Shown here in pieces: positions 41,260-64,000 of a stretch of DNA of 64,000 nt; within the stretch, counting starts at the first letter, position 1; each line of letters begins with the position of its first letter. The DNA is from Paramecium tetraurelia (Eukaryota). The translations under genes were made by a program, and so were the position numbers. The notes beneath the pieces are model-generated. The model was not told the DNA's origin and ran no database searches. It was given only the letters and a program-made list of their open reading frames with translations. The stretch spans positions 186,001 to 250,000 of the forward strand of contig CT868681.1 in NCBI GenBank assembly GCA_000165425.1, written 5' to 3'.

Positions 41260-41333
41260 GGTCTCGTAGCTCAGTTGGTTAGAGCGTCAGTCTAATAAGC
41301 TGACGGTCGAGGGTTCGATCCCCTCCGAGACCA
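41260..41333 (+). tRNA. tRNA-Ile (anticodon AAT)
   Basis: Cloverleaf: acceptor GGTCTCG/CGAGACC+A, D arm TAGCTCAGTTGGTTAGAGC, anticodon stem TCAGT/GCTGA with loop CTAATAA, T arm GAGGG-TTCGATC-CCCTC. Confidence 0.97.
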
Positions 41334-57077: not shown

Positions 57078-60000
57078 ATGTTACCGGAGAGTGCTAAAAT
57101 AAAGCTTGCCAGTCGTTTGTTTGATAGAGGGAAGCCTACTTAGAGCAATAATAATAACGAGAGGCCATTGACTTCGAAGATTGCGATCAGGGCATAGCTG
57201 AATCAGACGATGACCAAGATTGAGAAGGTTCCCGATAAATTGCCTGCGATTCGCGAGGAACGCAGTTATTCACATCAAAAGTCAGGAGGAGCAGGTCTGA
57301 ATCAAACTCGAGGGAAATCATAGAACAGTAATATTGATTAGATTGAATTTAGACAATGACTCATTCCCAAAGCATAATAAAACTTTTGATTTAACAAATG
57401 ATATATTCTTAGATGAGAGACGATTATTAAAGTCTCGTCAGGTTCATGAGTTGATGGATCGCATGATTGGAAGAGCGAAACCTCCAAGTCCACCAAAGGA
57501 AGTTTAGAAGGTCGTCTAGGTGTTGCCAAGTAACATCTTAGATAATACTCGCATGACTATGACAAGGGATAACAGGACAGCACCAAGGAAGACCATTCGA
57601 GCATAACAAATGAGGAAAGAGATTTTGAATAAAACCTCCATGTCTTAGGTTTCAGATAGTTCGGAAGATTCAAGTGAAGAGAATGGCAATTTCGGGTTGA
57701 AAGATGTAGATGCATTCATTCAGATGATTAAGGAACACAAATTAAGTTAACAGGAATTCATGTATCTGATCAAAAGGAAGAAACATTCAAATGATGCTTA
57801 CAATATGAGGATAGTCAACTATCCCTATATTCAAAAGCATTAGCTCAATAATTTCTATACTCTCTCAGCCAAGGGATTGACTAGATACGAGAATAACATT
57901 ACAATTGAGTTTGTTTCATTAAAACACCTGGTTAGAAGAAAGGGATTAATTTAATGCAATTAAATCATTAAGTTTTTTTAAGAAATTCCGTAAGTGGAAG
58001 ACTCTCAAGAAATGGTAAAAGATATTACATTAACATCGAACTTCTATTGTGTAAGCCTAACTTTGTGAGAAGATGTTGATTTTGAATCCAATTTATTAAA
58101 AATTAATAGTTTCACATAGAAGTTTATGTTACGACATAGAAGCACTTAGAATAGTCGACATAGAAAAGATAGAAGAAGAATTGACTGACAAAAAAGATTA
58201 GTATTTGAGTTTGCAAGAGTTTAGTCTATTACAGTAGAAGTAGAGGAATAAATTAGTGGAGAAGATCTAGATTCAATCAAGGAAGATGAAAGAAAATTGT
58301 TTATCAGGACTTAAAACTGTTATTGATAAATTGAGAACACAAATTAATTAAGAGAAACAGTCAGATGATGATCAGGTGCCTTTGAAAATAGAGAAGAATA
58401 TGTCTCAATCTAGGTAAATTGATAAGAAGTAATAAATTATCGAAACTTTTGGATTTCCTGAAAGAATGGATTATGGTCACAGAGCATTAATGAGAACAGA
58501 GTTCATTAAGTTTTTAAGATTAGCTTATCTATTAGATTTCATTGCTGTTTAATCGTTAGGATAAATTTACATTAAATCAGCAACAGAATTTGTGGATAAA
58601 TTGATTAAAGTTCAATAATGCAGTAAAAATAACAGAAAACTGCCTAAATTGACAGAAAATGAAGAAGAAAAAAAGGATTTTCAAGATTATGATCCCATTT
58701 TCACTATTGAATTAAGATTTAATCCAATTTATGGACATCTTGATATCGAAAGGTTGTAAGTGCCTTGGGATACTTTAAATGAAAATTTGTTGGATTTTGA
58801 TTTGTAAGAGTGTATTAGATTGAAAGAAGAGAAGGTACAAACGATTGAGAAGGTAGAGAAGAAACAGTAAAATACTCAAAATGCAAATTAATAGTAACCT
58901 ATAGAACCATAGGAAGAGTTGATTGAAGATCCTGAATTTGTATGTAAAAGAGAGGTTTAAAACCTGTATGAAACACAATTGGAAGTACATCCATCTAAAA
59001 GAGACTTCCTGAGTCGAATTTAAGAGGCATTCTGTGATGGATTAGATTAGATATAAGTGATTGAAAGATGGAGCAAACATCCTGATTTCTTATAATATGT
59101 TTAAGCCTTAGAAGAATGGGATGAAATTATTGGAGATAAGTGGACTTAACCTGATTCCATTAATCTGAATCCTTCATATTGGATTAAAGAACACCCTATG
59201 AACAATATATTCATGCATGAGATTTCTTAGGAATTGGATTAAGCATTTTCAAAATTAGAATTCTTCTAAAAGGAATTCAACGAGTACTTGAATTTGATTT
59301 GGAGACAAGAAAACAGTGAAATTGAATAATTAGAAAATCCAAGGCTGATGTATCAATCAAAGATATTTTCATGTGCTTTGAAGAGTGCTCAATTGATTGA
59401 CCATATACTGCAATAGAAATTGATACCGTAGGTGGATATTGGTTTGTACAGAGTCAAGATATAGAATATTTAGAAGTAATTGAGTGCTAGACAATCATAA
59501 ATACTAGCATAATTGGAGGAACTTTACTTATAATTGTTTAGGAATAGATCTTTGATATTGAAGGCATGGTTATAATAATCAATAAAATCCTTATCAGGTA
59601 TGGTTATCAGAATTGAAGAATTTATTGAATAGAAGAACTCTGTAGATCGAATAACAAAGGAATTGCCTTCAAAGAGAGAGGAAATTGAAACGGCTATCAG
59701 TATAATCTCATTGGCTTAGGATTGTAAGTTATTTTCGATGAAGAAAGAAGATAAGGATTTAGCACAAGAATTGAATTATTTAGAATCTTCTTTGAATGTT
59801 GCATTGTCAGAAGCTGACAATAATACAGCCAAAAACATAGAGAAGTTTAAAAAAACATTGAAAGAACGCATAGACAAGTTAAAAGGCGAATGTTTGGATG
59901 TGAGTGAAGCAGTGAACAAGGAGAAGTTTTTGACATTGAACACAGATTTATCAGATGCCATTAAGGAGTTAAATGAAATAGATACGAAAACAAAATAGTT

Positions 60001-63000
60001 GGAATAGAGTGCTTAATTATATACTCAATATGAAGAAATCCTGTAATGTTAAGAACAAGCTCAATATGAAATATTGGAAAATACTAGAGAATAATTAAAT
60101 TTGAGACTAGGAATGTGGTAGGGGATTCAAGAGTTTAGAAAATTATCATAGGAGTGGCAGCAACTATAATTCACATCTATTAATGCTAAGGAGATCGCTT
60201 AGAAGACTGAAGGATTCGTTAGGATTGTACAAAGATGCGAAAAGAATTTGTAAGAAAATAGAGTGATTGCCTATTTGAAGAAGATAGTGTGGGAATTCAA
60301 AGATACTATTCCTGTTGTGACAGCATTACGTTCTCAATATTTACAATAAACACATTGGCAAGAAATCAAACAATTGGTCAGATAGGAATTTGATGTTAAT
60401 GATCAATAATTTACATTGAATACTTTGTTGGATCTGAATGTAGCATAACACAATGAGTAGATCACTGAGATAGCTGTGAAAGCAGCTTAAGAGGATTCGC
60501 TTAACACTTAATTAAAACAGTTGGAGACACAATGGAATGAAGTGGAATTGAAGTTGAAACCCTATAAAGATCAATTGGATGTTATGGTTTTGGGAGAAGT
60601 GGAAGAGTTAGTTCAATTGTTTGATGAAGGACTGGCAAACATGTCTAATATACTGGCTAGTCGTTATGTTAGACCTTTGAGACAGAGAGCTGAGAAATTC
60701 TAATCTGATTTATTATTGTTATCAGATATTATTGAGAAGTGGGTTGAATGTTAAAAAAAGTGGATGTATTTGGAGAGTATTTTTAGTAGTTAAGATATCA
60801 AGAAATAACTATCTAATGAATCTTAGTTATTTGATAGTTGTGATAGATTGATAAAGAAGTTAGTCAAACAAGTCAATCTTAGACCTTAGATAATGAGATT
60901 GTTAGCTATGTAGAATATGCTCGATAATTTAACTAAAACATTGGAGACTTTGGAATAAATAGAGAAGTCTTTAGAAGATTATCTAGAAGTCAAGAGGGGA
61001 TCATTCCCACGATTCTACTTTTTGTCTAATGATGAATTATTAGAAATTCTATCTAAGCAAACTGACATTAATTCAGTTCAATCTCATTTAGGATAATGCT
61101 TTGAAGCATTGGTCAAATTATACTTTGGTGATTAACCAAATGTTATTTAGGGCATTTATTCTTCAGAGGGTGAGTTAGTCCAATATTATAAATCAATACC
61201 TGCCAGAGGGAATGTTGAGACTTGGTTGCACTTGTTGGAATTGGAAATGGTTGAGACTTTACGTAAATTATGTAAGTAAGGATTACAAGACTATTTGAAT
61301 GGAATGCAAAAGACTAAGACAGATTGGATTCTTAATCATAAATCATAGATTGTGGCAGTTGTTAGTTAAATACTTTGGTCAATCAACACTGAAGATGCAA
61401 TCAATGAATCTAGTGTAAAAGCAAATGCACTTTACGAATGGCATGATATGATGGAAATACAATTAAAATAACTCACAGCATTGGTCAGAGGAGATTTGAC
61501 AGTTGTTTAAAGAAAAACTATAGTTTCATTAATTACTACAGATGTTCATAATAGAGATATAGTTATGAAGTTAGCTGATAATAGTATTGAAACAACATCA
61601 GATTTCTAATGGTAATAATAATTAAGATACTATTGGGATGAGGAATGCGATGATTGCTTAGTTAAGTAAGTCACAAGCGTATTTCATTATGGATATGAAT
61701 ATTTGGGACCAACAAGTAGATTGGTTATCACACCACTCACAGATCGTTGTTGGATTACAATTACATCAGCATTGACCAATCAATTAGGGGCAGCTCCTGC
61801 AGGTCCCGCAGGTACAGGTAAGACTGAATCCACAAAAGACTTAGCCAAATGTTTGGGAAGATATTGCATAGTGTTTAACTGCTCAGATTAAATTACTGCT
61901 GCCACGATGAATAAGTTATTCAGTGGTTTAGCTTAATAAGGAGCATGGGCTTGTTTAGATGAATTCAATAGAATAGACATTGAAGTACTTTCAGTTATAG
62001 CATAATAATTATTGACGATTCGTATTGCTTAATTGTAATAATTGACTGAATTTTTGTTTGATGGTCGACACATCTAATTAAAGAATACTTATGGAGTATT
62101 CATCACTATGAATCCAGGATATGCAGGAAGAACGGAATTACCAGACAATTTGAAATCACTCTTCCGTCCTGTGGCTATGATGATTCCAGATTATAGGTTG
62201 ATTGCTGAAATTATGTTATTTGCTGAAGGGTTTGAAAATGCAAATGATTTATCAAGCAAGATGGTTCAGCTATATAAATTGTCATCACAATAATTGTCAT
62301 AGTAGGATCATTATGATTTTGGTATGAGAGCAGTCAAATCCTTATTAGTCATGGCTGGTTCATTAAAGAGAGCAGATACAACTATCCCTGAAGATATTGT
62401 GTTAATTAAGGCTATGCGTGATGCAAATATACCAAAGTTTTTAAAGGATGATATTCCATTATTCATGGCTCTGATTTAAGATCTATTCCCTAAAGTTGAG
62501 ATAGCCAATTCATCCTTCCAATTCCTGGAGTAATAGTTGAATAAGAAATGTCGATAATTTAAATTGTAAATCATACCAAATTTTATAACGAAAATGTTGC
62601 AGTTGTTTGATACTCAAAATGTTAGATTTGGAACTATGATTGTTGGAGGCAGTGGATCTGGCAAAACTAACTGTTATCAAATATTGGCTGAAACAATAAG
62701 CGAAATAAAAGTCTAGAATTTATCATAGGATCCTAGATTCTAAGAATTACAATTTATTATTTTAAATCCTAAGTCAATTTCAATGGGGGAACTTTATGGA
62801 GAGGTCGATCCTTTTACAAATGAATGGCAAGATGGTTTAGCAAGTTCCATAATCAGAGAGTGCAATAACAGCAAGGAGAGACATTGGATTGTTTTTGATG
62901 GACCTGTTGATGCATTGTGGATTGAGAATATGAATTCAGTCTTAGATGATTCAATGACTTTGTGTTTGGCCAATTCAGAAAGAATCAAGTTGAGACATGA

Positions 63001-64000
63001 GTTGCGAATGATATTCGAAGTTCAGGACTTGTCAGTTGCCTCACCAGCCACTGTGAGTAGATGCGGTATGGTCTACATGACAGTTTAAGATATCAATTGG
63101 TACAATTACGTGGAATGTTGGATTGAGGAGGTTTTCTCGGATCAAGAGAAGGGTTAGATCAAATGTTGCAATCAACTTAAAGAAAAGCCCAAGAAATCAT
63201 TACAAATAGAACAAAAATATTTAGATTTGATAAGAAATTTATTTAAGACTCAATATAAGTTTTTGTAAGAAAAACTTGGAAACCTTGATGAACCTTTTAT
63301 TACAATAGATGTATAGAGAGTGAAGAGCGTTTGCAACATATTAACTTACTTTTTGAAGTCCATCCTAGTTTAGAAATCTGCTGACTTGCCAAAACAAATT
63401 ACAGCTGTGTTCGCTTACAGTTGCATTTGGGGGTTGTGTGCATCATATGAACAGAAATATTATGACAAGGTACATTATTTTTTATATCATCTCAAAAATT
63501 TTAAATTTGCAGTGAATTTAGCCCCGATCTGTTTGAGTTTATAAATAGATGGGATAAGGTACCTGCAGAAATTAAATCCTAGAGGTAATTAAATGAAGTT
63601 TTGCAGATTTGAACTTTGTTTAAATTACTATTAGGAACATCCTATTACTTTAAATGCACCATATATACTTATATTATTATTTGCTATTAATTATTATTTT
63701 AGATTGCCACCTATGTCAAAGACCAATTTCAATCATTGCTCTACCCGAAAGGAGATACCATATTTGATTTCTACGTTGATGGCAATGACTTCACCACATT
63801 ATAATCGTGGGAATCTCAGTTATAAGAGTTCTAATTTGTAAAAGATCAATCGTTTTTCAGTATAGTTGTTCAAACTGTAGACACTTTGAAATTCCAATAC
63901 ATAATGCAATTGTTAATTAGAGAATAAATACCAACCTTAATCACTGGATAGACTGGAGTTGGTAAGTCTATGTTAGTTTAATCATTGTTATTTGAAATGA
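57078..64000 (+). CDS. Axonemal inner-arm dynein heavy chain (single-headed, DNAH6-like), 3'-truncated by window edge
   Basis: [26 protein letters not shown]1 [46 protein letters not shown]2 [30 protein letters not shown]3 GQTGVGKS; 25-nt intron near 57328, +1 indel at 57921-57924, 233-nt intron at 63470-63702. Confidence 0.96.
63470..63702 (+). other. Unusually long (233 nt) GT-AG intron in the dynein gene
   Basis: Removing GTACATT...TATTTTAG joins [18 protein letters not shown] to [25 protein letters not shown] in frame. Confidence 0.9.
63507..63642 (+). ncRNA. Intronic box H/ACA sno/scaRNA candidate (~136 nt)
   Basis: Hairpin 1 (TGCAG/CTGCA base, internal pocket, CCC/GGG and ATCTGTTT/AAATAGAT upper stem), H box AAATTA at 63569-63574, hairpin 2 (TCCTA/TAGGA, GTAATT/AATTAC, AAGTT/AACTT), ACA at 63637-63639. 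Confidence 0.8.

Follow-up and report, generated by a model that had tools for sequence, protein, structure and literature searches.

Why does a gene of Paramecium tetraurelia carry an intron of 233 nt, when about 98% of the introns of this species measure 20-30 nt? We addressed this question in a stretch of 64,000 nt (assembly GCA_000165425.1, contig CT868681.1, positions 186,001 to 250,000 of the forward strand; hereafter the window, with positions counted from its first letter), in which an axonemal dynein heavy chain gene is interrupted at 63470-63702. The size norm is that given in the accessible part of PMC5485702, as frame chaining within the window yielded only ambiguous candidates for other introns; the intron is thus roughly ten times the usual Paramecium size, and the longest intron annotated in Paramecium bursaria is 100 nt (available text of PMC12862383). 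A sequence-only reading of the window had proposed that the middle of the intron folds into a box H/ACA RNA. Our analysis points the same way: positions 63506-63642 very probably encode an intronic H/ACA RNA of about 137 nt, of either the small nucleolar or the Cajal-body kind. RNAs of this class carry the ACA box 3 nt from their mature 3' end, present loop strands complementary to a target around an unpaired U, and are stable molecules of about 120-140 nt.

The window reads as ciliate DNA, with TAA and TAG lying inside long open frames. Its last 6 kb are occupied by the dynein gene, for which the best matches among solved structures in the Protein Data Bank (PDB) are inner-arm chains of the DNAH6 type, from human and other organisms. 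Judged by these similarities, the host gene is an inner-arm (DNAH6-like) dynein heavy chain of P. tetraurelia, and a public P. tetraurelia macronuclear protein (P0002) is 100% identical to the translated upstream exon. Frame chaining places the sequence upstream of about 57300 outside the gene. The parts of the gene that matter here are:

57881-63469, plus strand: upstream dynein exon, an open frame in the ciliate code that ends ...YEQKYYDK at a codon boundary and matches DNAH6 and further axonemal dyneins in the PDB.
63470-63702, plus strand: spliceosomal intron of 233 nt, GT..AG, phase 0; an RNA contig skips it, the frames on either side fit, and homologs are collinear.
63703-64000, plus strand: downstream dynein exon, running from IATYVKDQF... 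to the AAA3 P-loop GQTGVGKS and open beyond the end of the window.

Removal of the intron is seen directly in RNA. In RNA-seq run X17, a contig of 542 nt (word depth 39.7) joins 63469^63703 and omits exactly 233 nt, with GTACAT at the start of the omitted stretch and TTTTAG at its end, and 63703 is the first base of a codon, in a frame without a stop up to the window's end. GT..AG borders, removal from mRNA and a restored frame, the properties of a spliceosomal intron, are all found at 63470-63702. Homologous proteins agree with the joint. In an alignment to the human DNAH6 chain (8j07_g5), the upstream piece extends to residue 2011 and the downstream piece begins at residue 2029 (query residue 14), and therefore no more than about three residues are unaccounted for at the junction, while the Tetrahymena utriculariae ortholog (P0004) is collinear across it without an insert (...SQKHYDTLDIYFKDTF...). 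This collinearity leaves no space for a hidden exon. The long intron that had been proposed from sequence is thus real, on the evidence of the RNA contig and the collinear homologs, and its predicted junction is the one joined in X17. All sampled words of the 63470-63702 stretch were complete in 16 of the 24 listed sequencing runs, which come from seven studies.

The folding signal of the intron is concentrated in its middle, as the whole 233 nt reach -42.8 kcal/mol with a z score of -2.32 (2 of 200 shuffles equal), whereas the core at 63506-63642 reaches -41.1 kcal/mol with a z score of -5.22 (0 of 200 shuffles equal). The core also differs in composition (32% G+C, versus 14-15% in the intron flanks) and is far more stable when folded as the plus strand (-41.1 kcal/mol) than as the minus strand (-24.5 kcal/mol), an asymmetry that arises because of G-U pairs. 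Its predicted parts are as follows:

63506-63642, plus strand: predicted mature box H/ACA RNA of about 137 nt, based on fold, G+C content and a covariance-model match in a diverged relative, with both ends inferred.
63506-63569, plus strand: hairpin 1, -20.1 kcal/mol, z score -3.67; lower stem 63506-63512 with 63563-63569, upper stem and loop 63523-63553.
63513-63522, plus strand: 5' strand of the pocket (UGAAUUUAGC), of which UUAGC and the following CCC are kept in the relative.
63554-63562, plus strand: 3' strand of the pocket (AUAAGGUAC), within a 19-nt block (63551-63569) that is identical in the relative.
63569-63574, plus strand: H box AAAUUA, which fits ANANNA; the relative has ACAUUA, which also fits.
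63577-63636, plus strand: hairpin 2, -19.4 kcal/mol, z score -5.16, nearly fully paired and without a canonical pocket.
63637-63639, plus strand: ACA box, directly after hairpin 2; in the relative it stands 1 base after the hairpin.

The order of hairpin, H box, hairpin and ACA that the sequence-only reading had drawn is present in the minimum-energy fold, with the ACA immediately 3' of hairpin 2 as described, and two hairpins joined by a single-stranded hinge with an ANANNA motif are found both in the window and in the relative. The pocket of hairpin 1, described with strands TGAATTTAGC and ATAAGGTAC and located at 63513-63522 and 63554-63562, has the spacing of a guide: the first base of its 3' strand (63554) lies 15 nt before the H box (63569), inside the range of 14-16 nt that separates the top of the internal loop from the H or ACA box. 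Hairpin 2 has no loop at the canonical distance in either sequence, and the suggestion that it looks closed and may not guide fits its nearly complete pairing in the window and its lack of a canonical pocket in both species.

The layout exceeds chance expectation. We scanned both strands of the window (128 kb in total) for a hairpin, an ANANNA motif, a second hairpin and an ACA, with each hairpin required to be single, to contain 14 pairs or more and to close no farther than 2-3 nt from its box. Among the 18 candidates, the intron ranked first at -37.9 kcal/mol and the runner-up, inside coding sequence, reached -28.4 kcal/mol. When the intron was shuffled 1,000 times with its dinucleotides preserved, only 10 shuffles held any candidate, the best of them at -18.8 kcal/mol. 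The window contains no second copy of the core 63506-63642.

The evidence that carries most weight comes from a diverged relative, a metagenome contig (L005) that was the sole locus returned with a poorly conserved query of 109 residues just upstream of the intron (70% identity). L005 matches the window at 76% of nucleotides over 2,350 nt and encodes an upstream-exon protein identical at 546 of 605 residues, but only 70 of 165 fourfold-degenerate sites (42%) agree, and silent positions are therefore near saturation. At the same codon boundary as in the window, L005 has an intron of 217 nt (1817-2033) with the same elements, namely hairpins at 1848-1908 and 1918-1978, ACAUUA at 1910-1915 and ACA at 1980-1982. 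The unchanged scan, applied to both strands of L005, gave one candidate, at the homologous position (H box at 1910, ACA at 1980). Identity between the two introns is distributed very unevenly:

5' flank: 16 of 38 positions identical.
63508-63525, plus strand: lower stem and 5' pocket strand, 15 of 18.
Apical stem and loop of hairpin 1: 10 of 26.
63551-63575, plus strand: GGG, 3' pocket strand, lower stem and H box, 24 of 25.
Hairpin 2: 24 of 60.
63666-63702, plus strand: conserved intron 3' block formed by the last 37 nt, 30 of 37 (L005 1997-2033).

The blocks that hold the guide strands, the lower stem and the H box (24 of 25 and 15 of 18) thus stand out, in this comparison of two sequences, against the 38-42% identity of the apical stem, hairpin 2, the 5' flank and the fourfold sites. 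Within the 24-of-25 segment lies a run of 19 identical nucleotides, GGGATAAGGTACCTGCAGA (63551-63569), and the 15-nt distance from pocket to box is the same in L005 because this strand is identical. The single change in the H box, AAAUUA to ACAUUA, falls on a free position of the motif. Hairpin 2 of L005, whose sequence identity is at the silent-site level, nevertheless folds as a hairpin (61 nt, -18.1 kcal/mol, z score -6.09, 0 of 200 shuffles equal). This pattern shows selection on precisely the features that count in a guide RNA, namely both pocket strands, the H box with its spacing, the lower stem, and an ACA placed after a hairpin; elsewhere the sequence has changed freely. Conservation in orthologous introns was one of the points on which the sequence-only reading could have failed; the L005 intron has the same site and architecture and keeps the pocket strands and the H box, while hairpin 2 and the apical stem are rewritten, and the comparison thereby lends support to an H/ACA RNA whose 5' hairpin would be the guiding one. 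Scans of viral contigs with the protein and with the 19-nt conserved block gave no further homolog. A conserved alternative coding exon was ruled out, as the read-through frame of L005 meets a TGA within the intron.

We also built a covariance model from the window sequence alone, leaving the pocket open. It matched L005 at 1843-1988 from end to end with 43.8 bits (rough E 7e-8 in 90 kb); the remaining matches were the window itself and its two palindromic minus-strand echoes, and nothing else. In the resulting alignment, the fate of the predicted pairs in L005 was:

Hairpin 2, 24 pairs: 13 still pair after a change in both partners, 2 have a change in one partner, 6 are unchanged, 3 are broken.
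Hairpin 1 upper stem, 12 pairs: 3 still pair after a change in both partners, 2 have a change in one partner, 4 are unchanged, 3 are broken.
Hairpin 1 lower stem, 7 pairs: 0 still pair after a change in both partners, 0 have a change in one partner, 5 are unchanged, 2 are broken.

The 3' strand of the pocket has a further property. The region GATAAGGTAC (63553-63562) is a direct repeat, at 9 of 10 positions, of the intron's own exon-intron junction GACAAGGTAC (63464-63473), and L005 keeps the resemblance at 8 of 10 positions, so that the guide strand is itself similar to a 5' splice site. This repeat may reflect the target of the RNA, binding of U1 or the origin of the intron.

At the other end of the intron, the conservation of 63666-63702 far exceeds the approximately 40% of the 5' flank. 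This block presumably holds the branch site, the pyrimidine tract and the 3' splice site of an unusually long intron.

Besides the spliced contig, X17 contains a second contig on the intron, of 211 nt (word depth 32.1), which spans 63521-63730 and runs through the 3' splice site into exon 2. This contig lacks 51 nt at the 5' end of the intron and 15 nt at that of the predicted RNA; its first letter is unmatched, and its start at 63521 is the G that closes a UUUAG motif. As the spliced contig is unbroken at 63469, molecules with the 5' end of the intron must be rare in X17. A 5'-trimmed, 3'-extended RNA might account for the second contig, as might other things. Runs X18, X20 and X16 gave no contig on the stretch (the share of words found in X18-X20 was 0.51) and offer no evidence either way on a small RNA.

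Comparison with Rfam, one of the checks proposed with the sequence-only reading, did not place the RNA in a known family. At gathering thresholds, the whole window gave a single match, a tRNA gene on the plus strand at 41260-41333 (71.9 bits), and no H/ACA family. Below threshold, five families matched the intron weakly, three of them H/ACA families on the plus strand that aligned end to end (63508-63642) and two of them C/D families; the Tetrahymena family TtnuHACA20 reached 14.7 bits against a gathering score of 100. We rejected a C/D small nucleolar RNA (snoRNA), as neither UGAUGA nor CUGA occurs in the intron on its plus strand. Orthology to SNORA13 was likewise rejected. The pocket strands in its consensus differ from those of the intron RNA, so the resemblance is generic, a matter of hinge and tail, and no target can be borrowed from it. 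SNORA13 guides modification of the hypermodified U in helix 31 of 18S rRNA.

Several results weigh against the assignment. The intron attains no Rfam gathering score, its best values being 19.4 bits against 53 for SNORA13 (E 0.35) and 18.4 against 50 for S_pombe_snR36, and the L005 intron matches no H/ACA family in Rfam. The thresholds of the architecture scan were set after the candidate was known, and the same scan found five candidates, with energies down to -30.7 kcal/mol, in about 23 kb of unrelated dynein loci of other composition (L001-L004). These are four eukaryote-like dynein stretches from metagenome-assembled genomes (MAGs), found in a scan of prokaryote genomes; they are 37-60% identical, are not orthologs, and were used solely as background for the scan and the covariance model. 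Only two sequences underlie the comparison with L005, and the pair counts lean toward the structure, to which the alignment behind them was fitted, while the invariant lower stem and pocket speak of selection rather than of covariation. Hairpin 1 of L005 is unremarkable as a fold (-12.4 kcal/mol, z score +0.65, 146 of 200 shuffles equal), and the L005 core lacks the strand asymmetry seen in the window (-31.8 versus -32.7 kcal/mol). In the window, the minimum-energy fold closes four weak pairs (UUUA/UAAG) within the pocket and leaves a 4x4 loop, so that these pairs must open before a guide could bind; the open pocket of the sequence-only reading is in this respect partly closed. A search for targets within the window gave, at the threshold used, only three weak G-U-rich matches, none of them convincing, and a primer-pattern search for eukaryotic rRNA turned up bacterial operons alone. 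Finally, the X17 intron contig is continuous with exon 2 and, as evidence for a separate small RNA, is ambiguous.

Some of these observations could be accommodated by a role of the hairpins in splicing itself, in place of a separate RNA. The conserved hairpins would shorten the distance between the 5' splice site and the 3' block, and internal motifs (the 5'-splice-site-like GAUAAG/GUAC at 63553-63562 and the 3'-splice-site-like UGCAG and UUUAG) would serve as signals for stepwise removal or for a poison exon containing a stop. The 9-of-10 repeat of the exon-intron junction, the 30 of 37 conserved positions at the end of the intron, the start of the X17 intron contig at the G ending UUUAG and the thermodynamically ordinary hairpin 1 of L005 are what such a role would lead one to expect. 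Yet 63469^63703 is the only joint in the RNA contigs, which contain no internal junction, and a purely structural function would not account for the identity of 24 of 25 positions in loop strand and hinge, for ANANNA and ACA motifs well placed in both species, or for the 15-nt spacing; nor would 120 nt of hairpin be needed unless the intron were already long. We regard this explanation as very unlikely.

Slimmer still is the chance that the intron holds a structured RNA of another class, such as the hairpin precursor of a small RNA or a ciliate RNA that belongs to no described class, in which the H/ACA motifs arose by chance in A+T-rich DNA. ANANNA and ACA are indeed short and common at 25% G+C, hairpin 2 is long, nearly perfect and without a pocket, and no Rfam family was matched. 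However, both lineages have the boxes at their canonical places, the H box in the hinge and the ACA 0-1 nt past hairpin 2, despite the complete rewriting of hairpin 2. In hairpin 1 it is the strands of the internal loop, rather than the arms, that are under selection, which is the pattern of a guide and not that of a small-RNA precursor. C/D boxes, too, are missing from the plus strand. An internal eliminated sequence (IES), or a mobile insert, left in macronuclear DNA and tolerated through splicing would match the intron in length and in A+T richness, although no result of the analysis points there, and we consider its probability close to negligible. Retention of an IES had been named as an outcome that would overturn the sequence-only reading, and it was not found: all sampled words were present in 16 of the 24 runs, the stretch is transcribed, and it is excised from RNA at GT..AG and not at TA repeats. 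Moreover, the core has no second copy in the window, and a long intron interrupts L005 at the matching codon boundary and is selectively conserved inside.

For the favored H/ACA RNA, a course of events can be proposed by analogy with intronic H/ACA RNAs of other eukaryotes. Cbf5/dyskerin, Nop10 and Nhp2, and later Gar1, would load onto the nascent intron co-transcriptionally; after splicing and debranching, exonucleases would degrade the intron sequence outside the particle (36 nt 5' and 60 nt 3' of the RNA) and leave an RNA of about 137 nt. The 5' hairpin, hairpin 1, would be the guide, and hairpin 2 would be a second protein-binding module that bears the ACA box. The intron would measure 233 nt because the RNA has to be housed. 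The guide sequence common to the window and L005 consists of UUAGC(C) in the 5' strand and AUAAGGUAC in the 3' strand. As the 5' strands diverge below UUAGC, the expected target is 5'-(G)UACCUUAU-U-N-GCUAA-3', with which the pocket would pair, leaving unpaired the U to be converted to pseudouridine. In the accessible part of the Tetrahymena supplement (PMC3273799), the pocket motifs are absent from the H/ACA guides, with the exception of a 7-mer, UUUAGCC, in HACA15; we dismissed this as a chance match, tied to a pre-rRNA prediction.

A more far-reaching idea is that the H/ACA particle, far from being a passenger, is what allows splicing of a 233-nt intron in a cell adapted to introns of 25 nt. 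With about 130 nt packed into two hairpins bound by protein, the 5' splice site and the 37-nt 3' block would be brought together, and the 3' strand of the pocket (GAYAAG/GUA) would compete for U1, balancing release of the snoRNA against dynein mRNA. We think this distinctly unlikely. If it were true, how much of a ciliary motor is made would hinge on the H/ACA proteins available, tying the building of cilia to the capacity for ribosome biogenesis.

The sequence-only reading suggested that hosting in a dynein gene may couple production of the RNA to ciliogenesis. A host gene unrelated to ribosomes is not surprising in ciliates, given that the available text of PMC3273799 assigns TtnuCD30 of Tetrahymena thermophila to an intron of a dynein light-chain gene and TtnuHACA17 to one of a preprotein translocase gene. 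As in those cases, the RNA proposed here lies on the sense strand of a ciliate gene that has no connection with the ribosome, one of the Tetrahymena hosts also being a dynein gene, and its size of about 137 nt is close to the 124-136 nt of the two-stem Tetrahymena H/ACA RNAs described in the same portion of that source. Unlike the Tetrahymena example, however, the host here is a heavy-chain and not a light-chain gene, and the Tetrahymena dynein intron houses a C/D RNA; Tetrahymena introns, in contrast to those of Paramecium, also lie outside the 25-nt regime, and there is no sequence match to the TtnuHACA models of Rfam, the best of which, TtnuHACA20, is far below gathering. In P. tetraurelia itself, snoRNAs are housed in a handful of oversized introns of about 80 nt (Chen et al. 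2009, as cited in the accessible part of PMC5485702). These share with the present intron the organism and the breach of the size norm to house a snoRNA, but an intron of 80 nt is too small for a two-hairpin H/ACA RNA, and the one described here has 233 nt. The predicted RNA further resembles vertebrate and yeast H/ACA guides, for example SNORA13 (RF00396) and Schizosaccharomyces pombe snR36 (RF01439), in its succession of hairpin, hinge, hairpin and tail, in its ANANNA and ACA motifs, and in a pocket 15 nt from the box. It differs from them in its far sub-threshold scores, in guide strands unlike those of SNORA13, and in having a pocket in one hairpin only. Searches of full-text literature returned nothing specific on an intronic H/ACA RNA in Paramecium, although the slash in 'H/ACA' may defeat phrase matching.

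If the intron does house such an RNA, a rare and gross exception to the tiny-intron rule of Paramecium acquires an ordinary cause, the accommodation of a two-hairpin RNA, and the pattern of oversized snoRNA introns would extend from about 80 nt to 233 nt, with an H/ACA guest. The defined and conserved guide sequence could be used to look up targets in Paramecium rRNA and small nuclear RNA. The locus would also provide a natural test case of a short-intron spliceosome facing a long intron packed into ribonucleoprotein.

The intron has consequences for gene annotation as well. Public protein models miss it and read it as protein. The P. tetraurelia model (P0002, 2,254 aa) reads through the intron and ends at a TGA at 63887, which cuts the dynein heavy chain to about half its length. 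The Paramecium sonneborni model (P0003, 4,253 aa) has a 43-residue insert at the junction that is translated from the intron, part of which (GNQMK.C.F.LCL) corresponds to hairpin 2 of the window read in frame; the insert gives no base-level changes in hairpin 2, as the amino-acid letters leave the register ambiguous. The Paramecium pentaurelia model (P0001, 283 aa), a fragment, continues without a break across the intron's 3' block, so that 63666-63702 is seen there in translation. P. sonneborni and P. pentaurelia thus evidently possess the orthologous intron.

The dynein gene shows a second irregularity near its N-terminus, an apparent +1 frameshift at 57915-57930, where EFVSLKHLV lies in one frame and its continuation in the next. 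The orthologs of P. sonneborni, Tetrahymena and Pseudocohnilembus are uninterrupted at this site, and one A less in the TTAAAAC run would restore the frame. P0002 skirts the site by means of an artificial intron, with the loss of a conserved segment. The frameshift may be a homopolymer error of the assembly or a genuine lesion.

Two minor observations concern other sequences. On the minus strand at 62036-62112, antisense to the dynein coding sequence, there is a weak C/D-like match to plasmodium_snoR28 (24.8 bits versus 63, E 0.53), which is most likely due to chance. The assemblies that hold the dynein stretches L001-L004 are labelled as bacterial MAGs, and one of the stretches lies in a 3.1-Mb record called chromosome 1 of a Methylophaga MAG; the presence of eukaryote-type dynein in them probably reflects contamination or chimeric assembly.

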